64,000 nucleotides of DNA from a virus. Its lineage: Duplodnaviria > Caudoviricetes. This document shows positions 5,589-22,328 of this stretch, one piece after another. The position numbers were made by a program, and so were the translations under genes. Location of the stretch: IMG/VR virus record IMGVR_UViG_3300049740_002155; one strand, given 5' to 3'. Below the pieces are notes generated by a model. That model worked only from the letters and a program-made list of their open reading frames with translations. It did no database searches and had not been told where the DNA came from. Numbering within the stretch: the first letter of the stretch is position 1; each line of letters starts with the position of its first letter.

Positions 5589-7205
5589 GTGGACATTATA
5601 GAGCATTATATAAAGAATTCATCTTTAGTTGATATCTCCAGTGATTTTGACGATGTATTATTTGAATCGACATTAAAAAATCATTTAGGAGATATGTTTA
5701 AAAGAAAAGACAAATTTATAGACATAGTAGATAGTGCAATTGCAGGTGACATCAATTTACTTGATGGTAAGGGAAAGGAGTTAAAGAAACCAAATGCAGA
5801 GCTATGGAAAACCTTAAAAAAACAACTTCAAAATGCCAAGAGTATAGAGGATATTAAAACATGGTCTAATCCACCTGGTTCAGAAAAAGGTGAATTTGAA
5901 AAATTATTTGGAGTAATTCCTTCTAATTTTGGAAAGGATCTAAATGGTCTAACAGGTAAATCTGGTGAACCAACAGGTGCAGAGTGGGAGCATTTAATTA
6001 CCTATCAATTTAATAAGTTAGTTGGTGCATCTGATCACAAGGAGTCTACCAAAGTTGCATTAGGATTTCCTAATTATTTAGAAACTGCAAAGAACGTAGC
6101 AGAAAACCTAAAAAAGGAAAGTGCAGTTGGTAGTGGTCAAATGACACAATTTGGTGGTGGTAGTAGTTCAAGTAATTGTTCTACTTGGTGGATTAACCAA
6201 GGTGGTTCAAACGGAACACCAAAAGCAGATATGATTACAAGTTCATGTGGTATATCGTTAAAAAAGAAAGGTGGTTCTCAACTAATGTCTGCGGGTACAG
6301 GTGAAACTTTGGCAACATTTAATACAGCACTTGGTTGGTTTAGTGGCGATAATGACGGTATCAAGAAAGTAAATGACCTTATAAATAAAATAGAAGATAA
6401 ATTTGATAAGATAACAACCCACTTAGGCAAACGAGAACTTGATAAACTATCTAAATTACCCGAGGATCAATGGCCAGAAAAAAGCAAGTCATCCATCGAG
6501 AAATATATTGAAGTGGAAGCATACCACAAAGAAATTAATCAGACTATTAAGGATTTTGATTTTCATAGTAACAAAAAATTTAGAGATTTCTTTGTTTACG
6601 AAGCAATGTCAGGACAAAGAAAATTTACAGGTGGGGAAAATGACGCAAGGGCAAGTTTGTGTGTAGAGTTTGATGGATCTACTGGTGCTTTATCAAAAGT
6701 TATTTCCACAACATCAGATGGTAAAAAGAATTTCACCGACCCACCCAAGGTTTCTTCTGATATTAGTAAACTTGCTTCTGGTGCAAAATTTTATGTTGCT
6801 TGGAAAAGTTCATCTGGTAATCCATATTCAACTTTTCGTGCAAATATATCCGAGGGACAAAATTCAACAATTGAAATTCCCACGATTTCGGAAATATTTA
6901 GAAAAACTTTAGCAGAAGACACTCTAATAATTGAATATAAGAAAAAACTTTTATCTGAAAATAAACAACTCAATGAGTTTCAGATACTAAAAAAGATGTG
7001 GTCTTCTGTAAAAGGTGCAGGTAAAAAGTTTCTGAATTGGATGCAGAGTATATACAAAAAGTTTTTGAAGAATATCAAAAAAACATTAAATAAAATTAAG
7101 AAACTTGGTAAAGATGCGTTTAATGCTGTTTTAAAGTTTGCAGGTATTGAGATTTCATCTGTGAGAGCAGATATTCCAAAAGACGTAGAGCAATTTATGT
7201 ATTGA
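5589..7205 (+). CDS. conserved phage protein, putative PD-(D/E)XK-like nuclease
   Basis: GAEWEHLI...TPKADMI...GISLKKKGGSQLMSAGTGETLATF: candidate E...D...SxK...E arrangement; basic amphipathic C-terminus; GTG start. Confidence 0.5.
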   Translation: MDIIEHYIKNSSLVDISSDFDDVLFESTLKNHLGDMFKRKDKFIDIVDSAIAGDINLLDGKGKELKKPNAELWKTLKKQLQNAKSIEDIKTWSNPPGSEKGEFEKLFGVIPSNFGKDLNGLTGKSGEPTGAEWEHLITYQFNKLVGASDHKESTKVALGFPNYLETAKNVAENLKKESAVGSGQMTQFGGGSSSSNCSTWWINQGGSNGTPKADMITSSCGISLKKKGGSQLMSAGTGETLATFNTALGWFSGDNDGIKKVNDLINKIEDKFDKITTHLGKRELDKLSKLPEDQWPEKSKSSIEKYIEVEAYHKEINQTIKDFDFHSNKKFRDFFVYEAMSGQRKFTGGENDARASLCVEFDGSTGALSKVISTTSDGKKNFTDPPKVSSDISKLASGAKFYVAWKSSSGNPYSTFRANISEGQNSTIEIPTISEIFRKTLAEDTLIIEYKKKLLSENKQLNEFQILKKMWSSVKGAGKKFLNWMQSIYKKFLKNIKKTLNKIKKLGKDAFNAVLKFAGIEISSVRADIPKDVEQFMY

Positions 7206-8804
7206 TTACTTCTTGTAAAACACAAAGATAGGTTCGTATTTTTGCAACTCTCCGTTTATCTTGCAACAATTCTTAACCGTTTCTGCTTTAACACCACGCA
7301 TTGTTGTCATAAGCATTTTAAGAGTTTCAACATACTCAAGTCCGTATTCCGCAAGAATATCACGACTATCTTTTTCTAATGGCATAAATCCATCTCCGTC
7401 TGCGATGTCTGCGATATTCCAAAGCAAGTATCTATCGTTCTTTAAATACTCGGCAGCCGTCTTTAAAGTAGGACGAAGAAAGTTGTCTCTCCAATCTTCA
7501 TACTCTGGAAACTTTTTGAAACTCTGAGATTCATCTGCTGAATATTGTTCACGATTAAAATATGGTGGACTCGTAAAAACTAAATCAAGTTTGCCTTTGT
7601 ATTTTTGGAAACTTGGATTGTTGGAAATTTCTTCACTTCCGTTTTGATAAACATCATACGTGTTACGGTGACCAAAGAACGGATTGCCTCCGTTTGTTTT
7701 GTCATTAAAGAAGTCGGCAAGATATTCGTAACGACTTTGATTTAGTTCGTCTATATAATTATCTGTGTTTGGATCAGTTCCTATATAATGAATTTGACGG
7801 TCGTGTACTGACATAGCACCAAGAATACGTCCACCCCAACCTGCACTTGGATCATATATATGAAGATTGCTTTTATCTTGAATGTGATCTGTGTACGTCT
7901 GATAAATATACTTTGCAGTCAACGGAGGAAAGTTTACTGCTGGTTGACTAAGACCAAGTTTAAATGCTTCCATTGCTGACGGAAAGATTCTTGAGTTCTT
8001 GTTGTAGTAACGAATACTGAATTTGAATTGTACTTCTTTTTCGTCTTCGATAATTACATCATTTATATTTTCTATATCGTCACCGAAGTTTGCAGTTCTT
8101 TCTAAATTTCTAATGTTGTTTAATTTAAGCAAACCTTCTTTGTATAATTTCTTGATTTGCTTTGCCGTTAACATTAAACTGCTTGCTTCATATGAATCAA
8201 ACTTTTTTTCTGTAAATAATTCTATTATCCAAAAATCATTGTCTGGGTGAAGGTGTTTTTCTTTTACAAAGTTACGAATCCATTGCTCTCCGTTTTCCGT
8301 TGGACACGGAACATCAAAATCATTTTTCTTTATTGTTTTTCCGTGGGCATAAAAAGAATCTCTACGAACTGTTCTTCTCATACAAGTATGAAAACTTTCA
8401 CGTTTAGCAGGATTGGCAAAGCAATCATAAACACTCCAAGATGTATGCTTACTTGAACCTATTTTAGTTTTAAGCATCGTTGGAAAGAACTGATCAACCA
8501 CAGTTGCAAACTTATTAAAGTTTTTGATGATAGTTTTTGTTCCATCCATTTCATCTGTATGTTGAAATTTGTAAACATCATAACCAGGCAACTTGTTAAA
8601 GTTTGCTATAATGTCTTTTTCGTTTTTACCTGTTCTTGGCGGAAGACCTTCATTGTCCCATGTTTCTACTATATAATTTCTAAGTTCATCAATCCACATT
8701 TCCAACTCTGCACCATTCTTTTGTAGCAGTTCGTGGAATGTTATATTTACTTTACATTCTGCTAAATTGTTTTTTTCGTAGAAATATTTTTTCATATTAT
8801 GCAC
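7206..8804 (-). CDS. SAM-dependent DNA amino-methyltransferase-like protein (N4-C/N6-A type)
   Basis: IYDPSAGWGGRILGA (motif I) followed by DLVFTSPPYFNREQYS (motif IV), with a long N-terminal extension. Confidence 0.85.
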   Translation of the reverse strand: MHNMKKYFYEKNNLAECKVNITFHELLQKNGAELEMWIDELRNYIVETWDNEGLPPRTGKNEKDIIANFNKLPGYDVYKFQHTDEMDGTKTIIKNFNKFATVVDQFFPTMLKTKIGSSKHTSWSVYDCFANPAKRESFHTCMRRTVRRDSFYAHGKTIKKNDFDVPCPTENGEQWIRNFVKEKHLHPDNDFWIIELFTEKKFDSYEASSLMLTAKQIKKLYKEGLLKLNNIRNLERTANFGDDIENINDVIIEDEKEVQFKFSIRYYNKNSRIFPSAMEAFKLGLSQPAVNFPPLTAKYIYQTYTDHIQDKSNLHIYDPSAGWGGRILGAMSVHDRQIHYIGTDPNTDNYIDELNQSRYEYLADFFNDKTNGGNPFFGHRNTYDVYQNGSEEISNNPSFQKYKGKLDLVFTSPPYFNREQYSADESQSFKKFPEYEDWRDNFLRPTLKTAAEYLKNDRYLLWNIADIADGDGFMPLEKDSRDILAEYGLEYVETLKMLMTTMRGVKAETVKNCCKINGELQKYEPIFVFYKK

Positions 8805-9624
8805 CTACATTCCAAAATAAAGCACCTTCTTTTGCATATTCTTTTACAAACTTCCATGCTTTAGCATCATATGTTGGAGCAGATGGAAATGGTGGCATTT
8901 CATTTTCTTTTATTGCTTTATCAAACTGATATTCTGATCTGTAATATTTTGCTCGTCCTATTTCTCTTTCATTCATTTTATGTCCAACAGATACTACATT
9001 AACAGGTATCTCAGGAAAAGCAAGTTGTAAACCACGACTAATCGTTCCACTTGACCCAACACTCCAAATTTCACTTGGTGGATTTTCGGATAAAGCATTT
9101 CTTGCAACTTTAATAATACTTGCTACAACCGTTGGGTGTTCTAATCCGATTGGAAATTCCATTCTATTTTCTGGATCGTCTGCTACATATTTTTTTGCTC
9201 TTGATTTAGTAACTGATAACATTCCCATATTTACCCACTCGTATATAGCACCCAAGTCCATTCCTCTTTTTTGATATTCATGATAGTTTTCTGGATTGCG
9301 TTTTGCCATAAACAATACAACTTTTTTGTTGTATTTCTGTGCAACTGCCGGTAAAGATATTTGTGCGTAACCCGTTGCAGGACAACATCCAAATACAATT
9401 TCTTTTGCGGAAGTTTCACGAATGAGTTTATCTACGAAACGAATTTTACTTCCGTGGTTTAGTAGATCATCTCTAACCACATCAATTCCTTCGTAGTTCA
9501 TAATAATCGGTTTTGGATTTGGGTCTTCCCAATCTTTAACCAAATCTAACAATTGATCTTCACTCCACATATTACCTGTGTTGTCTTCGTATACTGATTC
9601 TATAAATTTTGATAACATTACCAT
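8797..9624 (-). CDS. fold-type II PLP-dependent enzyme (TrpB/ACC-deaminase/D-cysteine desulfhydrase-like)
   Basis: VVRDDLLNHGSKIR with Schiff-base Lys, GYAQISL, Gly-rich phosphate loop VGSSGT, PTYDAKAW. Confidence 0.8.
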   Translation of the reverse strand: MVMLSKFIESVYEDNTGNMWSEDQLLDLVKDWEDPNPKPIIMNYEGIDVVRDDLLNHGSKIRFVDKLIRETSAKEIVFGCCPATGYAQISLPAVAQKYNKKVVLFMAKRNPENYHEYQKRGMDLGAIYEWVNMGMLSVTKSRAKKYVADDPENRMEFPIGLEHPTVVASIIKVARNALSENPPSEIWSVGSSGTISRGLQLAFPEIPVNVVSVGHKMNEREIGRAKYYRSEYQFDKAIKENEMPPFPSAPTYDAKAWKFVKEYAKEGALFWNVGA

Positions 9625-10088
9625 GATTTTGTATTTACTTTAATTGCTCGTTCTTCTGATAACTCATATCCCATGAGTTCTGCTAAAATTCTTGTTCGTT
9701 TTGATGGTCCGGGTACTCCGAATGTATTCACCATGAAATAGCATTTTTTTGCTTTTGTATAATCCACATCTTCAAAGTTGGGAAATTGATCAACTGCCAA
9801 ATCAACAACAGAATAATCTGGCCACATAATAAACCTATGCAATCCATCGTCTCCAGGTATGCCAGGTAACTTATATGGTTTAGAACCACGTGGTGATAAA
9901 TAATAATAAACAAATTCTGCAATTACATAACAATAGTTTTTAGTTGGATTGTCGTGTGTCCACCCTTCTTTCATTAACTTTGTTTTTAGATGCTTTTTTC
10001 CCATAACACGAAGTGCATCATGTAAAGTTTGTTTATTGACACCTGCTAACTCATACATAGCTTGCAGTCGTTCTTCTGAGATTTTCAT
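9618..10088 (-). CDS. hypothetical protein with putative papain/transglutaminase-like Cys-His-Asp triad
   Basis: NYCYVIAEFVYYYL...LHRFIM...VVDLAVDQF spacing. Confidence 0.55.
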   Translation of the reverse strand: MKISEERLQAMYELAGVNKQTLHDALRVMGKKHLKTKLMKEGWTHDNPTKNYCYVIAEFVYYYLSPRGSKPYKLPGIPGDDGLHRFIMWPDYSVVDLAVDQFPNFEDVDYTKAKKCYFMVNTFGVPGPSKRTRILAELMGYELSEERAIKVNTKSW

Positions 10089-11371
10089 TCAATATAATCG
10101 TCGGCATCTTTGGTGGGTGGATACAATGTACTACTTTCAACCAACCAGTCTCTAAAGTTTTGATTTGCTTTTAAATCAACAACCAGATGATAACGATCCT
10201 GTGATCCACCGTTAAATGCAGTATGTGGTTTCCTCATATCAAGATACCACAATTCTCCTTCTTTCATTTTATCAACCGTTTTTGTTCCGTCTGTGTTCCA
10301 AAGTGTGAATTGTACTTTTGGATTTGTTTGAATTGGGAAGTGAACTCTTGCCCATTGATTATCTGAAATACCTGCTTCTTTGTCTTGACGGTCTGTGTGA
10401 CGTTGTAACTCTCCTTCGCCACCCGCAAGTTTAAGAATTCTGATTCTTTCAAATTCATAAGGAAGAAGTTTTAAATATTCTTCTACTGCTGGTAGTTTTG
10501 CACGAAGTGGAGTATCTTCTACTTTCCATTTTAATTTTTCTGGATTATTCTTTTTCCACTTGTTGTTCATTTCACTTGGTTTGATAATGAAATCCCACTC
10601 ACCTCCATAACCAGATACTGTTACTCCTGACCATGAATCACTTTTATTGTAATTTGAATAATGATTAGAAAACTCGGAACTTACTTTATTTAATTGTTCC
10701 ATGATTTTTTTAGGATTAGGAACACCTGGCATTGCTAATCTTTGTAAGGCAATTTCTTGTGCAGGGTCTATTTGTGAGTGTTCACCACCTTTAAACCAAA
10801 ATCCATACATATCTGCGAAACTGCTTATAAGATTATCTTTTCTTGTATAACCAATAGATGCAAGAAGTTCACGAATTCTTTTGAGTTGCATATCACATTC
10901 AATGACTGTAACTCCTTCTTCAAAGAAGTTTCCTTTTGCTTCGTGCTTTTCAATTAGTTTACCTAACCATTCTTCGTAACCAGGATAACAAGCAACTTCT
11001 TGAATATAAGCATCATTTGAACTTAAAGTAATTTCACGACCTGTAAAACTTACTATCTTCTTTTTCTTGGAGTGCATTTTTGGAATATCAAAATATAAAA
11101 TACACGCACGAATAATTCCATTTTCATCTTCCACCCAATCAACTTTTTCATATGTATCTTCTTTATGACCAAGAAGTTTCTGATTCGTCATATTGTTTAT
11201 TTTTCTAAACGGATCACGTAATCTAGGTGAATCTTTATACGAGTCTTCTGGATGTTGTGTTTCCCAAAAGCAATTTAATAAGTTGTCGTAAATTGGACTA
11301 TCCTCATAGACCCACTTCTTTCCGTTGTGAAACGGCTTAGGATATTCAAGTTCAACATTTCTAAAATTCAT
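10085..11371 (-). CDS. two-domain protein: N-terminal unknown (possibly GNAT-like) domain + Asp/Asn beta-hydroxylase-like 2OG-Fe(II) dioxygenase
   Basis: C-terminal RIRILKL...RHTD (HxD)...RVHFPIQTN...MKEGELWYLDMRKPH (distal His)...DRYHLVVD (2OG-binding Arg). The GNAT call is tentative. Confidence 0.8.
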   Translation of the reverse strand: MNFRNVELEYPKPFHNGKKWVYEDSPIYDNLLNCFWETQHPEDSYKDSPRLRDPFRKINNMTNQKLLGHKEDTYEKVDWVEDENGIIRACILYFDIPKMHSKKKKIVSFTGREITLSSNDAYIQEVACYPGYEEWLGKLIEKHEAKGNFFEEGVTVIECDMQLKRIRELLASIGYTRKDNLISSFADMYGFWFKGGEHSQIDPAQEIALQRLAMPGVPNPKKIMEQLNKVSSEFSNHYSNYNKSDSWSGVTVSGYGGEWDFIIKPSEMNNKWKKNNPEKLKWKVEDTPLRAKLPAVEEYLKLLPYEFERIRILKLAGGEGELQRHTDRQDKEAGISDNQWARVHFPIQTNPKVQFTLWNTDGTKTVDKMKEGELWYLDMRKPHTAFNGGSQDRYHLVVDLKANQNFRDWLVESSTLYPPTKDADDYIE

Positions 11372-11392
11372 CTATATATTATATAAACAAAT

Positions 11393-12298
11393 TTATTTGG
11401 CGTCAACTATTTTTTTGATATAATCTTCTAGTTTAATTTTTGCGTTCCAACCAAGATGTTGGTAGGTTAGAGATGGAATTGCTTTTCCGTAGAATCTTTC
11501 ACCACGTCTTTCTGGAATCATAATATGTTTATGATTAAACATTTTTGCTACATCAATTATTTTATGTGGAATTCCTGTGCCAAGTGGGTATTCTCCTTGT
11601 TGTCCTTTTGTGGCTGCCAATACAACCCCATTTACAATATCGTCTATATGTGTAAAATCTCTTGACTGATTACCCGGTTCTACGACAGTGAGTGGTTCTC
11701 CTTTGGAATATTGTTCTTCAAATATACCAATAACGGTTGCGTAATCACCCGTTCTTACTTGTCCTGGACCATAAGCATTATAGAAATAAGTGATTTCAAA
11801 TTTAAGATTAAACCATTCTGCATAATTGTTGATTAGTTCAACCATTTTTGCTTTCATCCACGCATACGGAGAAAGATTTTCGTCTTTACCATCATTACCA
11901 AATTTACTTGAACTTGCTGAATAAACTAACTTTGCTTTTTTTGCGACACAATAATCAAGAACCATTTTAGTTCCTTGCATATTATAGTCCCAACAATTAT
12001 CAAACGAATCAAAACTTGTTACGATTCTTGAAAACTCACCAAAGTGGAAAACAACATCTGGTTCGAAGGCATCTGCAATATCCATCTTGGTATTGGTTAC
12101 GTCAAATTTTTTCGGAATTAAAGTTTGAGTATCTTTATTAAGATAAGTTACTTTTTTACTTTTAATATGATTGCTTTCAAATCCACTACTATAATTGTCA
12201 ATGCTTATAATCTGAATGTTCTTATATTTTCGTATAAGTTTGCGTATAAGTGCAGTACCAACAAAACCTGCACCACCTGTTATCAAGACTTTATTCAT
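11393..12298 (-). CDS. NAD-dependent epimerase/dehydratase (extended SDR)
   Basis: ITGGAGFVG, ASSS, SPYAWMK (YxxxK), FYNAYGPGQ, RDFTHIDD. Confidence 0.92.
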   Translation of the reverse strand: MNKVLITGGAGFVGTALIRKLIRKYKNIQIISIDNYSSGFESNHIKSKKVTYLNKDTQTLIPKKFDVTNTKMDIADAFEPDVVFHFGEFSRIVTSFDSFDNCWDYNMQGTKMVLDYCVAKKAKLVYSASSSKFGNDGKDENLSPYAWMKAKMVELINNYAEWFNLKFEITYFYNAYGPGQVRTGDYATVIGIFEEQYSKGEPLTVVEPGNQSRDFTHIDDIVNGVVLAATKGQQGEYPLGTGIPHKIIDVAKMFNHKHIMIPERRGERFYGKAIPSLTYQHLGWNAKIKLEDYIKKIVDAK

Positions 12299-12321
12299 AT
12301 AAATAAATAAATAGATTGAAA

Positions 12322-12729
12322 CTACTTCTTTTCTTTTAATCCAGTTAAATCACTTGAACTGCGTATTTTGTCACCGAGACCATCAACCATTTCAATGTTA
12401 TGTTTTTTACAAACAACACTTTCAGGGACTTCTCCGGTGCTTCTGTCTCCACCATTTGCAAAAATGTCTGGTTTGATTGCATCGAGAGAAGCACACACAC
12501 TTTTGTCTTCATCAATGCTGAGAAATGCTTCATCAACAATTCCAAGTGCTTCTACGATTTTTACTCGGTCTACTTCGTCCATAAATGGTTTGCCCTTTTT
12601 AAGAACACATTGATGATTGTTGTTTACGATAACAACAAGACGATCACCAAGTTTCTTTGCTAATTCAAGATATTCCAAATGCCCCACGTGAATTGGGTCA
12701 AAGTATCCACTAACTGCTACTGTTTTCAT
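12322..12729 (-). CDS. cytidylyltransferase/nucleotidyltransferase (TagD/RfaE-II-like)
   Basis: SGYFDPIHVGH (HxGH), KGKPFM, FANGGDR, DKIRSSS; start moved to ATG 12729. Confidence 0.9.
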   Translation of the reverse strand: MKTVAVSGYFDPIHVGHLEYLELAKKLGDRLVVIVNNNHQCVLKKGKPFMDEVDRVKIVEALGIVDEAFLSIDEDKSVCASLDAIKPDIFANGGDRSTGEVPESVVCKKHNIEMVDGLGDKIRSSSDLTGLKEKK

Positions 12730-12733
12730 TATG

Positions 12734-13105
12734 TTACTCCGATTCGTGTTTTTCTGGACGATCATAATCGTCTTGGACTCTTACAATGTCATCTTCACCA
12801 AAATAAGTTCCTGTTTGAACCTCCACCAAAATCATATCTTCTGAATCACTTGGGTTTGCCATACGATGTTTTGCTCCGAGTGGAATCAATACGGTTTCAC
12901 CTGGTTTGTAATCTTCCGTGACATCATCTAAGGTTATTCTTGCCACACCACTAACAATTGTCCATGCTTCTTGTCGTTTGTGATGATACTGATAACTTAG
13001 TCTTTGTCCTGGTTTTACAAAGATGCGTTTAACTTTGCAATATTCTGCGTCTAAAAGGATTTCGTAATTTCCCCACGGTCTTATACTTTCGTCTTGTTTG
13101 CTCAT
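12734..13105 (-). CDS. mannose-6-phosphate isomerase, type II cupin domain
   Basis: RPWGNY...KVKRIFVKPGQRLSYQYHHKRQEAW...HRMANP...EVQTGTYFGEDDIVRVQDDY. Confidence 0.92.
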   Translation of the reverse strand: MSKQDESIRPWGNYEILLDAEYCKVKRIFVKPGQRLSYQYHHKRQEAWTIVSGVARITLDDVTEDYKPGETVLIPLGAKHRMANPSDSEDMILVEVQTGTYFGEDDIVRVQDDYDRPEKHESE

Positions 13106-13109
13106 AATT

Positions 13110-13247
13110 TTATCCCCATCTGTCTGCTAAATCTTGTTCTGATATTTTATGTTTTTTTGGTTGTATGTATTTTATTGATTTGTTCAATATGATTATACTA
13201 TGTTTTTTTGTTTTAATAAATACTTTTTTTAGATTATCCATTTCCAT
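13110..13247 (-). CDS. small hypothetical protein (45 aa)
   Basis: MEMDNLKK...DLADRWG fills the gap and overlaps the upstream stop; real start probably ATG 13247. Confidence 0.45.
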   Translation of the reverse strand: MEMDNLKKVFIKTKKHSIIILNKSIKYIQPKKHKISEQDLADRWG

Positions 13248-14190
13248 ATATATCTTCAAACTTATCAATAAATTTTTTAAGTTCTGTTTTTGGTAATTCA
13301 TTTATACCGGCTGCTTTTTCACGACCACCACCTGTTGGGAAACTTAAAGCAAGTTTACTCGCACCTACTGGATTGTCTTTTGGGGAACGAATGCTAATAC
13401 GATAATCATCTTCATTGATATTTGTTAAAATTGCAAATGCTTTGCTTGGATTGTCTGTGGTCTGCTTGTTACTATATATACCCGAGTATCTGACGGATGC
13501 TTTTGTGTCTGGGAGTAAAATTATGCTTCCGGTGTCCGATGAGTATAATACTTCTGAGGAATTTAGTTCCTGCTCATCCAACTTCATCTGTGAGTTTATT
13601 TTGTTATATAGTTCAGATTTTTTTCTATATTCAAACGGAGATTCATAATCCTTTATGTCAAGATATACATCTTTAGGGTGAGCAGTTAAGTCTGACTCTT
13701 GATTTCCATACCCATTGTAATTCAATGTTTCTCCAATTTCTTTTAAATAACTCATGTATACTTCATTAAAACATGGATTTAGTTTTTCTGCTTGTTCGTG
13801 TAAGTTATCTCCGTATGCTCCACATATTGTCCAAGGACGATGTAACCCATCAATATATTTGTCCACCAAAATGTTGGTACAACAATTTGGGTTTGTATCT
13901 ACAAATATTTCAAAGTTGTCTCCGAGTTTAGTTTCACCGGGTTCGTGATGATCAAACCAACGAATTGTATTTCCGTTACTTAAAATTTTATTAACATGAT
14001 CTTTGTTTGATAATAACGATACATCAAATACGGTAAACTTTGATTTTTTTATGTCGGTGCAATGTCTCAGCAACTCAACATCTCGTTTGACTCCGGTAAA
14101 TACTTCCGAGTTTTGTGGATAGTGCATTCTATACTGATGTAGACTTATTATTCCGTCTGCATCTCCGTTGAAAAAATCAAAGTATTTCAT
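13234..14190 (-). CDS. DHH-family phosphoesterase
   Basis: FNGDADG, FDVS, WFDHH, DHHA1-like GGGREKAAG; this subtype resembles those of polysaccharide biosynthesis loci. Confidence 0.85.
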   Translation of the reverse strand: MKYFDFFNGDADGIISLHQYRMHYPQNSEVFTGVKRDVELLRHCTDIKKSKFTVFDVSLLSNKDHVNKILSNGNTIRWFDHHEPGETKLGDNFEIFVDTNPNCCTNILVDKYIDGLHRPWTICGAYGDNLHEQAEKLNPCFNEVYMSYLKEIGETLNYNGYGNQESDLTAHPKDVYLDIKDYESPFEYRKKSELYNKINSQMKLDEQELNSSEVLYSSDTGSIILLPDTKASVRYSGIYSNKQTTDNPSKAFAILTNINEDDYRISIRSPKDNPVGASKLALSFPTGGGREKAAGINELPKTELKKFIDKFEDIYGNG

Positions 14191-15065
14191 TTCTTTGTTT
14201 TCTTTTCTAACCCAACATCCGCAGAAACTGCACGTCCTTTATCTGCCATCCAATCTTTTTCTGGACGATCAAGTTCTTCGTTTCTTTTTATTACCGCATC
14301 AAGTATAGGAGTTGGTATTGAATTATCTTCTGCAAATTTTGCCAAAGCATTTGTGTCTTTTGGAAAGCAGGTTCCTCCAAATCCACGATGACCATCGTGA
14401 CCAGGAACTTTAGTATGACCAGTTCCGATTCTTTTATCTTGTGTTGCAATGCAACGCACGTTTTCATAATCAATGTCAAGTTCTGAGCATATTGATTCAA
14501 GTTCGTTAAAGAAACCAACCTTTACACTTAGAAATACATTTTTTAAATACTTTATCATTTCCGCTTCACTCGGTTTGCACTGAATTACATCTTTGTTTAC
14601 TACCGAACCACTTCCGTTATTATATGCAAGTTCAAACATACGTTTCATTTTTTCATATAAAAAAACATCCGTTGAACCAAGTATCCATTGGTCGCAATTT
14701 TTAAAATCTTCTTTCCAGTTTTTTTCAGTAAGAAATTCGGGCATAAATGCAACATCAAGTTCCTCACTTGTTCCAGGTGGAATAGTAGAACGAAGTACAA
14801 TATATTTTGAGTCATCAATTTCTTGAATTTCTTCGCAAACAGAACGCACAATGTCAAGATTTGCACTTCCGTCTGAATTCATTGGAGTAGGAACTGCAAC
14901 GAAAATAATTTCGGACTCCTCCACAAATGTTTCTATATCCAATGTTTTTGGATCTCTCTTTTCGGGAACCAAATCCCATACTAATACTTCTACGTGTGGT
15001 CTAAGCAATGTCATCGCATGACCCACGAAACCATTTCCAACAACTCCAATCTTCATATAACGCAT
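14187..15065 (-). CDS. ugd: UDP-glucose/GDP-mannose 6-dehydrogenase family, short form
   Basis: IGVVGNGFVG, FVAVPTP, LRSTIPPGT, PEFL, IKYLKNVFLSVKV, GFGGTCFPKD catalytic Cys; C-terminal UDP-binding domain absent. Confidence 0.9.
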   Translation of the reverse strand: MRYMKIGVVGNGFVGHAMTLLRPHVEVLVWDLVPEKRDPKTLDIETFVEESEIIFVAVPTPMNSDGSANLDIVRSVCEEIQEIDDSKYIVLRSTIPPGTSEELDVAFMPEFLTEKNWKEDFKNCDQWILGSTDVFLYEKMKRMFELAYNNGSGSVVNKDVIQCKPSEAEMIKYLKNVFLSVKVGFFNELESICSELDIDYENVRCIATQDKRIGTGHTKVPGHDGHRGFGGTCFPKDTNALAKFAEDNSIPTPILDAVIKRNEELDRPEKDWMADKGRAVSADVGLEKKTKK

Positions 15066-15121
15066 TCTCCGTTTTTTAAGTGCGATATAACCTTTTATTA
15101 TAAATATAAAAAAAGATATTA

Positions 15122-15931
15122 TTACTTAAATTTTCTTTTAATTCTATCGATTGCGTTTTTGTCGGAAACATTTGTGGAATTACCTAATGATGAACCAAAT
15201 ATTTTTAAAATTTCGTTTTTACTAAATTTCTTTTCGTCATCTGCTGAACGGATTTTTTCTTTTGCATCATGAACTCCTTTAATTATATTTGATGTCATTT
15301 GACTGCTTGTAATTCCTAACCAAGTAATAAGTCCTGGTATTTTACTTACGATCCAACCAATAAGTTGTGTAATTATCGGAAGAAGTGCAGGTCCTGCGAT
15401 TACTAAAACTGCAATTGCACCGACAATTCCAAACGTTGCAGTTAACCATCCCCAGAAAGAATCAAAGAATCCTTCTTTTTGTTCTTTTGCTTTTAATTCT
15501 CCTAAACTAATTAGTTTTTCTTCTGTATCCTTTAGGTCATGACCAAGCATTTGTTTTCTTCGTGCAAGTTTTATTACATCTTCTTCTCGGTCTGTCAAAT
15601 TTTTTACTGCTATTTCGTTTTCATTTACAACATCTTCAATGTGAATTTTATCTCCTGGTTGTGGAAGACCTACAATTTCCTGTGCCTTTCGTGTAAGATT
15701 AAGTGCAACTAAGTCTTCTTTTGATTTGTTTTCTGACAAAGAAAGTGCGTCAACTGCACCTGATATATATGCACTTGTGTGACGATCAAGTTCTGATTCT
15801 TTTCTTGATATTTCCCCTGCAATTTCTTGTCTATCTTGTTTAAGTCCCCAATTTGAAATCGTAAGGCATCCACTTGTAGAAAATGATAATATTAAAACAG
15901 AGAATACAACAACAATTTTTTTATAATCCAT
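15122..15931 (-). CDS. predicted lipoprotein with coiled-coil and internal/C-terminal TM segment (spanin-like topology)
   Basis: From ATG 15931: MDYKK-IVVVFSVLILSFSTSG-C signal peptide, helical region, hydrophobic FWGWLTATFGIVGAIAVLVIAGPALLPIITQLIGWIV. Confidence 0.6.
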   Translation of the reverse strand: MDYKKIVVVFSVLILSFSTSGCLTISNWGLKQDRQEIAGEISRKESELDRHTSAYISGAVDALSLSENKSKEDLVALNLTRKAQEIVGLPQPGDKIHIEDVVNENEIAVKNLTDREEDVIKLARRKQMLGHDLKDTEEKLISLGELKAKEQKEGFFDSFWGWLTATFGIVGAIAVLVIAGPALLPIITQLIGWIVSKIPGLITWLGITSSQMTSNIIKGVHDAKEKIRSADDEKKFSKNEILKIFGSSLGNSTNVSDKNAIDRIKRKFK

Positions 15932-16808
15932 GATTATATATAGTGTCGTTAATCTTTTTTTTAAAAAAACCAAGTTCCATATAAAAGTGTTTATTTGCGT
16001 TTTCTCTGAAGTTAATGATATTGTTTTTTAAAGATGAATCTGGTTGTTGGTAAAATCTATCCTCAACAACAACCATGTTTTTTAAAATGTATTGTTGTAC
16101 ATTCATGTTTTTTGATTTCATATATTTACAACATTCCATCACAAATGTATCATCGGGTCCATACCCTTTAAATGTATTTGGTATTCCAATGAGTTTCAAT
16201 AAATTTGCGGATATAACATTGAACCACCCACCTCCCCATTTGAATGTGTTACAGGATGTAAGTTTTACATCTCCATGATTTTTTTGTATAATCTTATTTG
16301 GATTGACTTTCTTATAGAAGTTATGAGATTTATTTAAATAAGTTTCATTTACGATACAATCCCATGTTGTGTCCCATAGTTTTACAACCTGTGGTGATAT
16401 TACAAAAAAATCACTATTTTGTCCTACGAGCTCAATAGCATTAATTTGATTTGCTAATATTTTTTTATCAAAATACAAGTCACAGTCTAAAAATAATATA
16501 TAGTCAGATTGCTTTGCTGTTGAAATTGTGCTTCTTCTGTGCTCATTGACTCCTAGAAAATTTTTATCACTGATTATTTTAAAATTAGGTTTTATCTTTG
16601 AGTTTAATTCACACTTAGAAAAAATGCTTATTAGATTTGATATATCAATTGATTTCATATTAACAATCTCTGTATTGATATTCAAGGAAACATCAAGTAT
16701 TATTTCTTCTAAATTTTTAACAAAATATGTGGCATCATTCAAACTCTCTACGATGCGTTGAAAGTTTTTAATTTCATGTGGAAATAAATGAATAGATATA
16801 AAAATCAT
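15921..16808 (-). CDS. glycosyltransferase (GT-A fold, GT2/GT7-like)
   Basis: YILFLDCDL (DxD), WGGGWF, FKGYGPDDT; start moved to ATG 16808 (ATGA overlap). Confidence 0.75.
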   Translation of the reverse strand: MIFISIHLFPHEIKNFQRIVESLNDATYFVKNLEEIILDVSLNINTEIVNMKSIDISNLISIFSKCELNSKIKPNFKIISDKNFLGVNEHRRSTISTAKQSDYILFLDCDLYFDKKILANQINAIELVGQNSDFFVISPQVVKLWDTTWDCIVNETYLNKSHNFYKKVNPNKIIQKNHGDVKLTSCNTFKWGGGWFNVISANLLKLIGIPNTFKGYGPDDTFVMECCKYMKSKNMNVQQYILKNMVVVEDRFYQQPDSSLKNNIINFRENANKHFYMELGFFKKKINDTIYNHGL

Positions 16809-18496
16809 GATAACAAAAGTTGCCAAGAATATAAAAGATATATTGCTTCCTCACACTTTCCATTATTGTTTGAAACGGATGCAAGGAGAGATTTGTATTT
16901 TTTAAGAGGATTTTTTAATATTACATTTTTACCGACATAAAAGCATTGCTTCGGATCATAGTCAACTGGTTTGGATGAATGATTCCATATATTATATCCA
17001 TCCGTTGTTTTCTTATACTCAATTGTATGATTTCCTATATATCGTTTTTGCCATGTGTCAAATGAATAATTTGAAAATTTGATCTCATTTTTTCGTGTGA
17101 TATGCTTATGTGGATTAAGTTTAATTGTGTTTCGTGTTTTTTCAAAAGGTGTATACTTGCATTCATCGTTTAAAGAATTAGTTTCGTTTGTTAGGTAATT
17201 GACTTGATCAAAATATTTTTTGTATACAAGTTCGTTTACAAAGAAAACTACATCTGGTAAATTTTCGTAATTTTCTATAATATAGTTCAAATAAAACTTT
17301 CCGTAATTGTAGTGTTTTTCTTTTTTTATATTGTCGTATAAGTGTGTTTCACATTTTATCTTTTTTAAATTAAAACTTTTGTTAAAAAATCTAACACCAC
17401 ACACCGAGAATTCACCATTTTTTTTAGTCAATTCTTTTTTTGATTTGGGTTTTATGTTTTTTAACTTATTTACAAAATCAAATGAATTGTCATTAATTGA
17501 AAACTCACGATAATATTTCTTTATGAGCACAAGAATTTTGTTTTTAAAATGATAATTTTCTAAACTATTTTGTAAGTGATCATCTTCTTTCCGTGAATAG
17601 AAATAGTTTTTAAGTAGTTCAAGTAGTTTTTTGTTTTTAATTTTATATAATGTTTTGGTTTCTTCTAAATCACAACTTGGATTATACTTAGATGCCCTCA
17701 GTAAATGCTCACGACTTGAATACTGACGATTTATAAAATTTCCATGATATCCAATTTCAAACTCAACGCCAAGTGGTTCTATGCTTATTACCTTTTTTGT
17801 TGTGTGTCTCCATTTAATAAAATCTTTTTTAAATTCGTCCAATTCTTTAAAGAATCTATCATCTGATATAAATTGTGTAAATTCTTTAAATTCCAAATAG
17901 CCAATGAAGTTGAGGAAATCTCCTGAACCAAAGACTGCCTTGTCATATAAAGGTTTGTCTGTATCTTTAAATAGTTTGCTTGGGTATATATAGCCATAAC
18001 CCGGTTCCCCTTTTCTGTATAATAATATGTCATATAGCGAATGCTCGTTTCTTGATATAAAATATGACATTGAACAATCAAGAGCATAATCACCAAAGTG
18101 ATTTTTATGCTTTCTCATAGTGGAGCAAATTTGTACGATTTTATTTTCATTTAGTGTAGATTTAAGTTTATCAAACCAATTTGGGTTAACCGGAACTATG
18201 TCTGCATCTACCCACCCCACAAAATCATATTTATTTTTTATTTTATTCAATCCGATGTTAAGTAGTTGTTCCTTTTGCCAAAATATTTGAGTTGATTTTA
18301 TGCTTGTAATATTGTGACAATTTTTATTTACTCTGTAAATTGAATTGTCTTGATATGCTTCAATTACATATAAATCATAAAGTTCATCTTTATTCATTTT
18401 GTCGTAAAACATCAAAAAGTTTATATATTTTGATAGATAGTTACACGGGTTGAAATAACAACAAACCAAAGCAATCTTATTTTTTAATACTTCCAT
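16805..18496 (-). CDS. glycosyltransferase-like protein (GT-A-like N-domain + second GT-like C-domain)
   Basis: WQKEQLLNIG, VGWVDADI (DxD), YDKAVFGSGD; C-part YLNYIIENYENLPDVVFF. Confidence 0.6.
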   Translation of the reverse strand: MEVLKNKIALVCCYFNPCNYLSKYINFLMFYDKMNKDELYDLYVIEAYQDNSIYRVNKNCHNITSIKSTQIFWQKEQLLNIGLNKIKNKYDFVGWVDADIVPVNPNWFDKLKSTLNENKIVQICSTMRKHKNHFGDYALDCSMSYFISRNEHSLYDILLYRKGEPGYGYIYPSKLFKDTDKPLYDKAVFGSGDFLNFIGYLEFKEFTQFISDDRFFKELDEFKKDFIKWRHTTKKVISIEPLGVEFEIGYHGNFINRQYSSREHLLRASKYNPSCDLEETKTLYKIKNKKLLELLKNYFYSRKEDDHLQNSLENYHFKNKILVLIKKYYREFSINDNSFDFVNKLKNIKPKSKKELTKKNGEFSVCGVRFFNKSFNLKKIKCETHLYDNIKKEKHYNYGKFYLNYIIENYENLPDVVFFVNELVYKKYFDQVNYLTNETNSLNDECKYTPFEKTRNTIKLNPHKHITRKNEIKFSNYSFDTWQKRYIGNHTIEYKKTTDGYNIWNHSSKPVDYDPKQCFYVGKNVILKNPLKKYKSLLASVSNNNGKCEEAIYLLYSWQLLLS

Positions 18497-19109
18497 CTGA
18501 ATTGTAATTGCTTGAATATAAACTATTATTATACTCTTGTTTTTGTATACCCTTAATATGCATTAGATCAAGGCCAACATCTTTTGGCAAATTTGTTGAG
18601 GATGTGTGTCCGGAGATATATTCATGAACTGGACGAGTCCATCTTATAGACTTTTTGTTTTTAAAAATTCTTGTTTGATAATCTGGATAATTAATTCTAC
18701 TCTGTGTGTCAATTTTCCAATTCCACTTTTTAATATGATGTGTTTGAATTCCTTTTACGAAGTTAATTCGTGGAACTCTAAATAATTCTATTTCGTTATT
18801 TGCTATCAATATTTTTTTAATGTTCAATAGAAGTAGTTCACTTGGATATTCATCTGCATCAATTTGAAATATATATTCACCGTTACACCTCTCTATTAAA
18901 TAATTTTTATGCTTTGCATAGTCTTTGTTTAATTTATGATAATATACATTTTCATGCTTTTCTAAAATATTTTTCGTTTCATCGTTAGTTGAATAATCGT
19001 CTAAAATTACTACTTCATCATTTAAATCTTTTTTTGAATTTAGTAGTTTTAAAAGTTGATCTAAGCACTCAACCTCGTTATGTGTGCAGATTGCGTATGA
19101 TATATTCAT
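18477..19109 (-). CDS. GT2-family glycosyltransferase
   Basis: ISYAICTHNE, VILDDYSTND, YIFQIDADE, YPDYQTRIF, WTRPVHE. Confidence 0.88.
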   Translation of the reverse strand: MNISYAICTHNEVECLDQLLKLLNSKKDLNDEVVILDDYSTNDETKNILEKHENVYYHKLNKDYAKHKNYLIERCNGEYIFQIDADEYPSELLLLNIKKILIANNEIELFRVPRINFVKGIQTHHIKKWNWKIDTQSRINYPDYQTRIFKNKKSIRWTRPVHEYISGHTSSTNLPKDVGLDLMHIKGIQKQEYNNSLYSSNYNSDGSIKK

Positions 19110-19810
19110 TTTTCTTCTATGGGTGGTATTTCCGAAGAAGTTGCTTCTGCGTCTTTTACGAAATCTTCAACTTCTCTAAATACTTTTACAAAGGTATTCA
19201 CATCACCAAATCTTTCTAATACAACACTTTTAAATTTTTTATCGGATATTTTATCTAACTTAAACCCCAAGGCCTCTTCAACTATCTTCTTCTCTCTCTG
19301 CAATTCATTGATATTATCTTGTCTACTTATTAATGTTTGTTGCATATCTTTTTTACCAGAAAACAACTTTGAGAAATCTAGATATCCAAGTTTTATTTGA
19401 GTCATGTTTGTTGTAATATAAGTACGATAACATTCCCTTTTTTGCAGTATCCTTTTTATCGTGGACGAATAAAATGGTTGAGGTCGATTTATTATTTCTT
19501 TGACTGGTGATTTTATTTCATATCTTCTTTTTAGCAAACTGATAGTATCTGTAACCAGTATGTTATTTAAAAAAGTTTTAAATTCTGTCCAAGGTAATAT
19601 CTCTAAATTTAATCCGTGTAATTTAAGTGATTTTTGATCACGATATGTATTCAGTACAAAAACAATCCTAAAAAGTTTTCTTCGTGTCGTTTTATCTTCA
19701 TCGGATGGGTTGTATTTAAATGTAATAACTTGTCCAGGTTTTATTCTGGCTACATTTGTGTTTTTAAAACCACCAACTAATCTTGTTAAATATGCTCTGT
19801 AAAAACTCAT
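19106..19810 (-). CDS. hypothetical protein, resembles T4 gp2-like DNA end-protector family
   Basis: PGQVITFKYNP...RIVFVLN...LHGLNLEILP pattern similar to the gp2-type G..F.Y.P...G.NL..LP. Confidence 0.4.
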   Translation of the reverse strand: MSFYRAYLTRLVGGFKNTNVARIKPGQVITFKYNPSDEDKTTRRKLFRIVFVLNTYRDQKSLKLHGLNLEILPWTEFKTFLNNILVTDTISLLKRRYEIKSPVKEIINRPQPFYSSTIKRILQKRECYRTYITTNMTQIKLGYLDFSKLFSGKKDMQQTLISRQDNINELQREKKIVEEALGFKLDKISDKKFKSVVLERFGDVNTFVKVFREVEDFVKDAEATSSEIPPIEEK

Positions 19811-19831
19811 TGCATATATAAATATATAGAA

Positions 19832-21067
19832 TTAGGATATATCAGGTAAGTCTAATTCAACTTCTACTGGAATATTTTCTATCTCCGGAATTATTAGTTC
19901 TTCATATTGCTTGAACACAGACTCTTTAGAAAACTTCTTTAGATTTGTTTTCTGCAATAGAACTGCCTGTTTTTTATGAGTATCATAATCATCAAATATT
20001 TTTTTCATAGAATTGGCAGAATCTGTTTCGTTTATATTTGCCCAAGTTGAATCTTCGCAAAATAAGTCGTTGCTTATTCCCACCTTTATTTGAGAGCAGT
20101 TTACTAACTCGGATTTGTCACTATCAAGAAAGTCTAAATGACCAGACCAGTTTGGTGCTATTACGGGACATCCACACAAAGTTGCTTCTAATATGGGTCT
20201 TCCAAATCCCTCACCCCGGGTGTGTGTTACGAATGCTTTTATTTTATCATGTGAGTATAAACTCTTTAATTCGGCTGCATTTAATTCACCATGTAAAAGA
20301 TAAACATTGGGACGTGCTTCTGGAGTAAAGTTATCAAGTTGTTCTTTGATTTTATCCTGAATATCATAATAGTCAGATGTACTGAAGTTTGTTCCGTTAG
20401 TTTTTAGAACTAGTGCAGGTCGTTTATCGTATGATGCAAATGCAGTTCCGAATGATTTTATTAAAGATGATATATTCTTTCTACCACCATCGTCTGTTGG
20501 TGATGATGTCCATTGTCCCACAAATAAAAAACAAAAGTCTTCGTTTATTTCGTCAAGTTCCTTTACGGGTACATCTGTGGTTGTTTCATAAAAAGAACCA
20601 ACTGCGTATTCAGGTACTACATCTATGTTGGTTTCTAGCTTTATATTCTCTTTTTCGTATATAGAGTTCTCGAATGACTCTTTTGTAAATGTAGATGGAA
20701 CTATCACTTTGTCCATTTGGTTACATCCACGAATGAACGGCAAGTTTACTTTTGATGTTTCAACTCCGGCAGTTATTCCAATGTTATATGTACCCAATCG
20801 TTTGAATTCTGGCGGGAGACCTAATTGAATATATACATCATAAAAGTCATATACATCTTTTGAGTCAACAAACATATTTTTAAGTTTGTCGTTTAATTCT
20901 TCGTTTGCTTGTAAACCAGTCTGTGGATTGTGACCCCACGGAGTTCCAATCATGTGTATTTCGTAATCATCTGCGTAGTTGGTTAAAAACTCGGCAAACT
21001 CTCTCGCATGATCACCGTACCCACTTCGTGATAAAATTGGAGAGACATATAATAATTTTTTTTTCAT
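19832..21067 (-). CDS. GT4-family (GT-B) glycosyltransferase
   Basis: SRSGYG, FLFVGQW, HTRGEGFGRPILEA, APNWSGHLDF. Confidence 0.88.
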   Translation of the reverse strand: MKKKLLYVSPILSRSGYGDHAREFAEFLTNYADDYEIHMIGTPWGHNPQTGLQANEELNDKLKNMFVDSKDVYDFYDVYIQLGLPPEFKRLGTYNIGITAGVETSKVNLPFIRGCNQMDKVIVPSTFTKESFENSIYEKENIKLETNIDVVPEYAVGSFYETTTDVPVKELDEINEDFCFLFVGQWTSSPTDDGGRKNISSLIKSFGTAFASYDKRPALVLKTNGTNFSTSDYYDIQDKIKEQLDNFTPEARPNVYLLHGELNAAELKSLYSHDKIKAFVTHTRGEGFGRPILEATLCGCPVIAPNWSGHLDFLDSDKSELVNCSQIKVGISNDLFCEDSTWANINETDSANSMKKIFDDYDTHKKQAVLLQKTNLKKFSKESVFKQYEELIIPEIENIPVEVELDLPDIS

Positions 21068-21068
21068 T

Positions 21069-22328
21069 TTATATTTTCTTTAATTTAATTTTATTCACTG
21101 GTTTAAATTTTTTGATTGTAGATTTGAGTATATTTGCAATTCCATTTGTCATTCGTTCCATCGGAAATGTTTTCTCAACAAACTCTCTTCCACGTTTACC
21201 CATACCCAAACGATCCATTTTATTCAACGAATAAATTGATATAAGTGCTTTAGCAACATCGTCTGATGATATAAAGTCTTCATAAATAAACGGAGTTGAT
21301 TCGTCACCCGACAACTTTCTAACACTTGGTTCAATGTGAATTCCCCAATCATTGTTTTTTACAATTTGTGATGAAAGTCCACCTGTATTTGTACAAATTA
21401 TTGGTGTTCCGGCTGCAAGTGACTCAAGTGTCGTTAATCCAAAACCTTCGTTACTGGCCGTATTTACAGTTACATCAAATGTATTGTACATTCTATTTAA
21501 TATAGTTTCTTCAACCTTTGCATTAGAAAACAGTATATTTCTATTGGGGTACAATTGCTCTGAGAGTTTTACTATATCGTGATTTCCTTCACCTACTCTG
21601 TTTGTATGAATCATTAAAACTGTTTTGTCTGCCTGATTCGGTTTAAGTAGACTGCAAAACTTATCATACGACTCCATCAATAAAGGTAGTTGCTTTCGTC
21701 TCATATTTGCGTTATTGCAGAATATTGCAAACTCACAACCTTCACTTAATAAATTATATTTACTTTCGGCTATGTGCTTTTCCGAAAGTTTATTAAATAC
21801 ATCAAGGGCAACTCCATGTGGAACATATTCACATATAATTTTGTTGGTATCAATTAATTCTGATATGAGGTTGTAAGTTAATTCACTTATACAAGCAATT
21901 CCATCGCAACTATCATAGTATTTTTTATTAAATATTGGTAGTGGATCGTTGTCCCATACATGATAATAAATCATGGGACATATTTGACGAACTTGATTGT
22001 CTAACGCAAACAACCACTTATAATACCTCGGATCGGTCATAAATAATATTGCATCAGGTTTTTCGTTTTCTAGTATTTTAAATAGCAACTCTTCATTGCC
22101 ATAACCAGATGTGCAATATAATCTAACATACACATCGTTAATGTTGCAAAGTTTTTCTATTGACTGCGATACATCAATTATACTTCCCGACTCTGGATGT
22201 TTTTTTCTGGCTGCAATTTGAATCCAATCAAACTCTTCTGCGTTATTTAGTATAATGTTTTTACAAACATTCGCAACACCAGACGGATACCTTATGTCAT
22301 CCCCTATAAGTAATATTTTAGACTTCAC
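21069..22328 (-). CDS. GT4-family (GT-B) glycosyltransferase
   Basis: SGVANV, NMRRKQ, ASNEGFGLTTLESLAAGTPII; GTG start. Confidence 0.9.
   Translation of the reverse strand: MKSKILLIGDDIRYPSGVANVCKNIILNNAEEFDWIQIAARKKHPESGSIIDVSQSIEKLCNINDVYVRLYCTSGYGNEELLFKILENEKPDAILFMTDPRYYKWLFALDNQVRQICPMIYYHVWDNDPLPIFNKKYYDSCDGIACISELTYNLISELIDTNKIICEYVPHGVALDVFNKLSEKHIAESKYNLLSEGCEFAIFCNNANMRRKQLPLLMESYDKFCSLLKPNQADKTVLMIHTNRVGEGNHDIVKLSEQLYPNRNILFSNAKVEETILNRMYNTFDVTVNTASNEGFGLTTLESLAAGTPIICTNTGGLSSQIVKNNDWGIHIEPSVRKLSGDESTPFIYEDFISSDDVAKALISIYSLNKMDRLGMGKRGREFVEKTFPMERMTNGIANILKSTIKKFKPVNKIKLKKI

Follow-up and report, generated by a model that had tools for sequence, protein, structure and literature searches.

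Almost all hypermodifications of phage DNA begin, to our knowledge, with 5-hydroxymethyl-pyrimidines or with 7-deazaguanine. In phages M6 and ViI the thymidine route runs from 5-hydroxymethyldeoxyuridine (5-hmdU) through the 5-HMUDK kinase and an amino acid:DNA transferase (AADT) to a decarboxylase that depends on pyridoxal 5'-phosphate (PLP), gp52 in M6 and gp226 in ViI (PMC8989533). M6 gp52 has been proven experimentally to decarboxylate C-alpha-glycinyl-thymidine in DNA, with K36 as the lysine proposed to form the aldimine, and ViI gp226 is its homologue, modelled on the structure 1j0a (PMC8989533). Cytosine hypermodification uses a methyltransferase (MTase), TET and transferase logic (PMC8256090), and CmoA/CmoB and the phage DNA C5-carboxymethyltransferase CmoX provide a case in which an MTase fold puts a non-methyl group derived from S-adenosylmethionine (SAM) on DNA (PMC12783734). 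Here we describe a four-gene cassette at positions 7206-11371, on the minus strand of a 64,000-nucleotide window that corresponds to bases 35388-99387 of the 161 kb IMG/VR record IMGVR_UViG_3300049740_002155. The cassette combines a relative of gp52 with an MTase-fold enzyme and probably builds an undescribed decoration on a DNA base; both the starter enzyme of this phage DNA hypermodification and its product are probably new.

Organization of the cassette

Among the genes of the record is one for a T4-type major capsid protein, Gp23 (E 3e-84), so the source is a marine T4-like phage, one that is present in seawater metagenomes across many studies. From first to last, the genes of the cassette, each an open reading frame (ORF), are as follows:

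10085..11371, minus strand: P0001, 428 aa, first cassette gene (ORF 11371>10085), predicted hydroxylase
9618..10088, minus strand: P0002, 156 aa (ORF 10088>9618), small protein
8797..9624, minus strand: P0003, 275 aa (ORF 9624>8797), predicted PLP enzyme
7206..8804, minus strand: P0004, 532 aa, last cassette gene (ORF 8804>7206), predicted MTase-fold enzyme

The first-pass annotation had described four minus-strand ORFs overlapping by 4-8 nt, with intact catalytic motifs in each. Its coordinates were exact, with overlaps of 4, 7 and 8 nt at the three gene junctions, and the motifs are all present and invariant in orthologues (7-20 sequences). An alternative ATG for P0004 at 8795, three codons downstream, lies closer to the orthologue consensus and turns its junction into a 1 nt gap; the genes are tightly packed with either start. 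No terminator-like site was found inside the cassette on the minus strand, and the cassette forms the 3' end of a minus-strand gene array of ~15 kb (22328>7206).

The PLP enzyme and its relationship to M6 gp52

P0003 has no Pfam match but matches phrog_7093 (E 1e-39), and its AlphaFold2 model (pLDDT 90.8) has the fold of a fold-type II PLP enzyme of the TrpB/1-aminocyclopropane-1-carboxylate (ACC) deaminase type. The best Foldseek match in the PDB is the ACC-deaminase homologue 1j0a (E 3e-10, TMq 0.73), followed by Cj0600, D-cysteine desulfhydrase and TrpB. K60, the predicted Schiff-base lysine in the motif GSKIR, and the phosphate loop S191-S192-G193-T194 are invariant in 15 sequences. The family profile aligns with M6 gp52 over nearly its full length (hhalign 97.5%, E 5.8e-12, 219 columns), placing K60 against the catalytic K36, and the two proteins have a common C-terminal signature, PFP..P.YD.KAW..FWN.G. 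In the reverse direction, M6 gp52 significantly matches only the P0003 gene in the phage genome (E 2.7e-6), and the same holds for the PLP enzyme from the aGPT-Pplase cluster of Pam3 (E 1e-9). Sequence and model together place P0003 among the fold-type II PLP enzymes, in the gp52-like family of phages, its activity being a prediction. The comparison with ViI gp226 and M6 gp52 that the first-pass annotation had suggested was thus borne out for gp52 and did not extend to gp226.

The family is almost entirely viral and occurs on 362 viral contigs. An exhaustive profile search returned 1,446 representatives at 50% identity, 991 of them with E <= 1e-10, and a scan of the genome collection added only three contigs from metagenome-assembled genomes and no cultured organism. 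Profiles of P0003, P0002 and P0004 searched against the sequences of solved structures gave nothing usable.

The MTase-fold enzyme

Two regions can be distinguished in P0004:

7935-8804, minus strand: residues 1-290, N-terminal domain conserved in orthologues, no recognised fold family
7206-7934, minus strand: residues 291-532, class I SAM-binding domain of the amino-MTase fold, with motifs I and IV

Motif I (DPSAGWGGR at 318) and motif IV (TSPPY at 411) are invariant in 20 sequences and follow one another in that order with a spacing of 93 aa. The match to Pfam PF01555 reaches 23.6 bits, below the cut-off of 26.7, and covers profile positions 2-59 only; phrog_12517 and phrog_498 are matched as well, and the Atlas clusters closest to P0004 consist of viral PF01555 families. 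The AlphaFold2 model (pLDDT 81) has a C-terminal class I SAM-MTase fold, for which the best structural matches are the exocyclic-nitrogen amino-MTases aTrm11, TrmN, Trm14 and METTL5 (Z ~13-15). P0004 is also related (hhalign 90.8%, E 1.2e-6) to the MTase that is linked to ParB in Microcystis phage Mae-JY30. For residues 1-290 there was no Pfam match, no Atlas lead >0.83 and nothing separable in fold searches with the whole model. Prediction of a complex between P0004 and P0003 returned "no answer" (score 0.00), which speaks neither for nor against binding.

The hydroxylase and the small protein

The catalytic part of P0001 lies in its C-terminal half:

10085-10696, minus strand: residues ~226-428 of P0001, domain of the Asp/Arg beta-hydroxylase 2-oxoglutarate (2OG)/Fe(II) family

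This domain matches PF05118 at 38.7 bits (cut-off 22.6), and H325-T-D327, H383 and R393 stay unchanged across 20 sequences, R393 being the presumed 2OG ligand. The closest solved relatives by profile are L-proline cis-4-hydroxylase 4p7w (E 2e-10) and proline 3-hydroxylase. The N-terminal ~225 aa belong to no recognised family and have no Pfam match; an assignment to GNAT was considered and found unsupported, the only pointer being a weak Atlas hint (0.87; family on 15% of members).

The only homologue of P0001 in a cultured phage is gp4 of mycobacteriophage LilMcDreamy (hhalign 99.9%, E 6e-35), which is encoded in the following region:

L098:1-3759: genes 1-4 of Mycobacterium phage LilMcDreamy

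There gp4 is preceded by a ParB-like gene, a weakly Tet_JBP-like gene and an AADT gene and is followed by the terminase, the AADT (gene 3; Pfam ADDT, 47 bits) standing directly before gp4. Hypermodification clusters with a ParB-dependent T-dioxygenase have this layout (PMC13229309), and to judge by gene content genes 1-4 are apparently an undescribed thymidine hypermodification cluster in a cultured phage, which makes them a possible experimental handle on the hydroxylase family. Gene 2 is annotated as queuine tRNA-ribosyltransferase and gives only a weak Tet_JBP match. Like the PLP enzyme, then, the hydroxylase falls in a family that works on amino-acid side chains attached to DNA bases, and its presence in an AADT-containing cluster is a second likeness to the M6/ViI pathways.

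In P0002, C53, H84 and D96 are invariant in seven sequences. All seven members of its family match PF24585 (YunG) weakly (best E 6.2e-6), with 16.5 bits for P0002 itself against a cut-off of 27, and the Atlas feature search agrees on YunG. By these matches P0002 appears to be only a distant YunG-like protein, and the acyl-transfer role earlier suggested for this Cys-His-Asp protein found no support. A 118 aa ORF that occupies the position of P0002 in locus L022 is unrelated to it.

The cassette as a unit

Gene neighbourhoods were compared around 43 dereplicated viral PLP clusters, 25 of which had enough flanking sequence. The PLP gene is accompanied by a long MTase gene at 21 of these 25 loci and by the hydroxylase gene at 18 (both together at 17), P0002 being found at five. 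In the close relatives L006-L010 the gene order is kept and the sugar genes that lie upstream of the cassette are present. At 74-80% PLP identity (L011-L017) the order is rotated to MTase > hydroxylase > small > PLP and the sugar array is missing; only a nucleotidyltransferase homologue lies ~3 kb upstream of the cassette in L015 and L017. At ~60% PLP identity the order hydroxylase > (small ORF) > PLP > (PAPS reductase) > long MTase is found directly after gp47/gp46, and T4-like contigs at this level carry the cassette near gp23, UvsY and UvsW. The co-occurrence check therefore came out in favour of the first-pass annotation: the MTase, PLP and hydroxylase genes stay linked in marine T4-like phages that have diverged from one another, whether or not the sugar genes accompany them, and all four proteins are also found fused to a PLP domain in other sequences.

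One case of fusion is gp1 of Erythrobacter phage vB_EliS_R6L (R6L), in which a PLP domain related to P0003 (hhalign 100%, E 6.5e-46; 38% identity) is inserted between motifs I and IV of a ParB-MTase, so that these motifs lie 320 aa apart as opposed to 69-93 aa elsewhere. In Microcystis phage Mae-JY30 the PLP gene comes after the ParB and MTase genes. Both systems, uncharacterised and annotated only as "DNA modification methylase", have the same PLP sub-family as the cassette and a related MTase sub-family with the extended motif S/C-PPY...E.YS.D. They differ from it in that the PLP and MTase proteins of the cassette are separate, a conserved N-terminal domain of 290 aa replaces ParB, and a hydroxylase and a YunG-like protein are added. 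A length-restricted search returned 88 long PLP-domain proteins, most of them combining PF00291 with PF01555, some also with ParB, while a few carry source-named RsmD or FtsJ/VP39-like MTase folds. Among the best matches of the exhaustive search are triple fusions of the types MTase-hydroxylase-PLP (P0217, P0230) and hydroxylase-YunG-PLP (P0221), together with seven MTase/PLP and nine YunG/PLP fusions, the latter count standing for at least 9 representatives. P0217 and P0221 were each confirmed as an intact ORF on its contig, with neighbours that resemble cellular mobile elements, and at L100 an MTase gene directly precedes the triple fusion. Pairs of PLP and MTase-fold proteins, and single proteins in which the two are fused, also occur without any other partner.

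Because the genes are collinear in most of the 25 loci and are fused as single polypeptides elsewhere, their grouping is not a matter of chance, and these comparisons indicate that the cassette very probably forms one functional unit. The "four-enzyme" description of this unit needs to be modified, since on the evidence of the neighbourhoods its core is a pair, the MTase fold and the PLP enzyme, with the hydroxylase a frequent and the YunG-like protein an occasional addition. In some cassettes (L022:8791-9486, L049) a gene of the PAPS-reductase family separates the PLP gene from the MTase gene, and another, R6L gp7 (L004:2386-3429), lies near the ParB-MTase-PLP gene of that phage.

A likely starter enzyme

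In contrast to the M6/ViI pathways, the phage that carries this cassette has no detected dUMP hydroxymethylase, T-dioxygenase, hmdU kinase, AADT or radical SAM (rSAM) isomerase. The ThyA-family dUMP hydroxymethylase profile PF00303 has no match in the ~80% complete record, in a search whose positive controls worked, and PF12851 (Tet_JBP), representing the T-dioxygenase, has none in the record either, in a search whose positive control matched nowhere. M6 gp54 and gp51 and the Pam3 aGPT-Pplases, used to look for the 5-hmdU kinase and AADT, gave no match at E <= 0.1 across the 161 kb record, a result of limited sensitivity since these were single-sequence searches. Neither ThyX nor an rSAM isomerase was detected in the phage genome. 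The earlier remark that the kinase and the AADT are not recognisable in the window thus holds for the whole record. With no hmdU route, kinase or transferase detected, the MTase-fold SAM enzyme becomes the likely starter, a second respect in which the cassette differs from the M6/ViI pathways. As this enzyme carries an amino-MTase motif, its target atom is probably an exocyclic nitrogen rather than the C5-methyl of thymine.

The target of the cassette

The homologies described above make it likely that the cassette modifies a nucleic-acid base and, with a smaller margin of confidence, favour DNA over RNA as its target. DNA is preferred because the characterised relative of the PLP enzyme, M6 gp52, acts on DNA (PMC8989533), because the hydroxylase homologue LilMcDreamy gp4 comes directly after an AADT, because the fusions carry ParB and N6_N4 DNA-MTase (PF01555) domains, and because fused PLP forms are located before the terminase and relatives of the PLP enzyme adjoin UDG-superfamily, kinase and exonuclease genes.

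The same enzymology could be directed at RNA, for example in a 3-amino-3-carboxypropyl (acp) or aminopropyl modification of phage or host tRNA or rRNA. We know of acp modifications only in RNA, which counts for this explanation, as do the best structural matches of P0004, the tRNA m2G MTases Trm11, TrmN and Trm14 together with METTL5, the fusion of PLP domains to a source-named RsmD protein and to FtsJ/VP39-like folds, and the five phage tRNAs in the window. Set against these are the homologies and fusions that favour DNA, the position of the genes beside DNA recombination and replication genes or the terminase, and a Pfam search in which neither THUMP, PUA nor any other RNA-binding domain came up. 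An RNA target therefore appears improbable.

Two loci contain the PLP family without a long MTase. At L085:4376-11043 it is flanked by genes for a P-loop kinase (AAA_33/Zeta-like) and an Anp1-like glycosyltransferase and by a DNMK-like gene, and at L091:3998-10147 it keeps company with a UDG-superfamily protein, a GT1-like protein and an exonuclease; judging by these neighbours, both may be further hypermodification pathways.

A proposed route from SAM

We propose that the cassette is a biosynthetic unit that would hypermodify a base, most likely in the phage's own DNA, from a start other than a 5-hydroxymethyl-pyrimidine. In the first step, the exocyclic amine of A, C or G would attack SAM in the SPPY active site of P0004, so that the acp group, and not the methyl group, is moved and methylthioadenosine is released. 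P0003 would then engage the adduct's free alpha-amine in a Schiff base and decarboxylate the adduct, as gp52 does with C-alpha-glycinyl-thymidine, leaving a cationic side chain of the aminopropyl type. In a third step P0001 would hydroxylate a side-chain carbon, this being a frequent tailoring step, with any contribution of P0002 an occasional one. A variant would lead to the same product if the PLP enzyme first made decarboxylated SAM (dcSAM), in which case P0004 would be an aminopropyl transferase. As in the M6 and ViI pathways, an amino-acid-like side chain on the base would be sculpted after replication.

The choice of acp as the donated group follows from the needs of the two core enzymes, because a PLP decarboxylase requires a free alpha-amino acid and the only one that a SAM-binding fold offers is the acp moiety of SAM. 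That SAM is the donor is also suggested by the stand-alone fused PLP-MTase proteins that have no other partner. It is further consistent with the fusion of the PLP domain to several different MTase folds (PF01555, RsmD-named, FtsJ/VP39-like) and with the amino-acid hydroxylases that are the closest solved relatives of P0001. Each step has a counterpart in known biochemistry: TYW2 transfers acp with a Trm5-like MTase fold, TYW5 is a 2OG enzyme that hydroxylates the acp side chain of wybutosine, and spermidine synthase transfers an aminopropyl group with an MTase fold. These enzymes would have in common with the cassette the movement of an acp or aminopropyl group from SAM or dcSAM by an MTase fold and the 2OG-dependent hydroxylation; they act on tRNA or polyamines, however, and without a PLP step. 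The likeness is drawn in terms of proposed chemistry, the structural match to BpsA (Z 11.9) being at the level of MTases in general. CmoA/CmoB/CmoX form a precedent for a SAM-derived handle placed on DNA for further hypermodification, although CmoX belongs to other enzyme families, uses carboxy-SAM as its donor, targets C5 of cytosine and has no PLP enzyme (PMC12783734). Neither a PLP-MTase module nor acp in DNA is the subject of any paper that a literature search brought up.

Several observations weigh against this proposal. The substrate, the transferred group and the product are all inferred from sequence, and no sequence feature that separates acp from methyl transfer was found. The best structural matches of P0004 are tRNA and rRNA amino-MTases and score just above generic MTases, and some PLP fusions use RNA-type MTase folds. 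The same genome encodes a 408 aa paralogue of the P0004 MTase domain (hhalign 99.7%), which differs from P0004 in its N-terminus and lacks a PLP partner, so that the P0004 subfamily may simply methylate. ViI gp226 was reached by tblastn from neither gp52 nor P0003. Finally, genes that are absent from the record prove little, as it is only ~80% complete.

In view of these points, the broader statement, that an MTase-fold enzyme and a PLP enzyme form a new route of DNA hypermodification whose side chain is SAM-derived or otherwise amino-acid-like, comes out slightly short of an even chance on the homologies available. Chemistry based on an acp or aminopropyl group from SAM is put forward more tentatively, by analogy with the enzymes above. 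More tentative still, though possible, is the full proposal that P0004 is the first DNA aminocarboxypropyl or aminopropyl transferase and that the three enzymes P0004, P0003 and P0001 would give a purine or cytosine with an N-linked (hydroxy)aminopropyl group built wholly from SAM. If the proposal is correct, an MTase-fold SAM starter would be a new entry point into DNA hypermodification, probably leading to a new and most likely cationic base, and would define a class built wholly from SAM that is widespread in ocean T4-like phages and present in cellular mobile elements as well. Uncultured marine T4-like phages commonly carry the cassette, so the modification could affect the sequencing, restriction and counting of ocean viromes. 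The enzymes are few, small and soluble-looking, and two genes or a single fusion should suffice, which makes the proposal directly testable and the enzymes possibly useful for DNA labelling.

Alternative explanations

On a different account of the DNA chemistry, P0004 would be a plain N6-adenine or N4-cytosine MTase, the hydroxylase would oxidise the N-methyl group to a reactive hydroxymethyl or iminium species, and a free amino acid, attached perhaps by the YunG-like thiol protein, would then be decarboxylated by the PLP enzyme. This would parallel the MTase, TET and transferase logic of cytosine hypermodification (PMC8256090), and it agrees with the SPPY and DPSAGWGG motifs, which are those of amino-methyltransferases, with the viral PF01555 clusters nearest to P0004 and with the 2OG oxygenase at 18 of the 25 loci. 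It is nevertheless unlikely, given that PLP and MTase pairs or fusions without a hydroxylase or a candidate transferase would leave the PLP enzyme with no substrate, that the hydroxylase belongs to the amino-acid-hydroxylating PF05118 group and not to AlkB or TET, and that the small protein is present at only five of the 25 loci.

It is less likely again that P0004 is a plain DNA MTase and that the PLP enzyme and hydroxylase act on free amino acids, SAM or by-products, supporting or regulating methylation while no new base is built. Fold-type II PLP enzymes such as ACC deaminase, D-cysteine desulfhydrase and TrpB do mostly act on free amino acids, the closest solved relative of the hydroxylase acts on free proline, and some cassettes contain an inserted PAPS reductase gene. 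However, P0003 has specific sub-family homology to gp52, including the common C-terminal signature, its family is almost entirely viral, and the insertion of a PLP domain inside an MTase catalytic domain, like the triple fusions, is hard to square with loosely coupled metabolism.

A role for the cassette in the adjacent glycan and nucleotide-sugar cluster, with an amino sugar or a glycan as the molecule tailored, is very improbable. It was rejected since the cassette is mobile independently of the sugar genes: although contiguous and co-directional with ~11 kb of them here and in L006-L010, it is intact without the sugar array in L011-L017 and in T4-like contigs, lies elsewhere among DNA-metabolism genes, and has a promoter candidate of its own.

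Genomic setting

The promoter candidate lies directly upstream of P0001:

11378..11406, minus strand: sigma-70-like promoter candidate TTGACG-17-TATAAT, 11/12

It is the best site in the interval 6800-12500 and is regarded as a candidate only, because the number of promoter-like sites in that interval is not above the shuffled expectation. Metatranscriptome contigs of related strains, from three studies, span parts of all four genes at 90-99% identity; as they come from related strains and may reflect DNA carry-over, we do not use them as evidence of expression.

Upstream of the cassette, a nucleotide-sugar and glycan array of ~11 kb (11393-22328, minus strand) encodes an SDR epimerase, an RfaE-domain-II-like nucleotidyltransferase, a cupin (mannose-6-phosphate isomerase C), a DHH-like protein, a UDP-glucose dehydrogenase, a DUF3431-like protein of 563 aa, a GT2 and two GT4 glycosyltransferases; among relatives, just the closest ones (L006-L010) have this array adjoining the cassette. 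On the other side, a 538 aa ORF (5589-7205, plus strand) with no family match lies tail-to-tail with the P0004 gene, with zero gap between them. Its identity drops to 31-33% in relatives in which the genes on either side share 91-99%, and this low identity between well-conserved flanks marks it as a hypervariable gene.

Upstream of the window, the same genome has three more N6_N4-type MTase genes beside a family B DNA polymerase gene:

L002:1375-2601, minus strand: N6_N4-type MTase gene
L003:1324-2220, minus strand: N6_N4-type MTase gene
L003:3-1400, minus strand: N6_N4-type MTase gene

A 273 aa ORF beside the paralogous MTase in L002 was rejected as a second PLP enzyme. IMG/VR classes the record as "provirus", yet its content, with Gp23, is T4-like. 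Elsewhere in the window, five tRNA genes (Cys-GCA, Thr-TGT, Pro-TGG, Glu-TTC and Ala-TGC) occupy 1679-2142 on the plus strand, and an ORF of 3088 aa (42956-52222, plus strand) lies amid structural genes.

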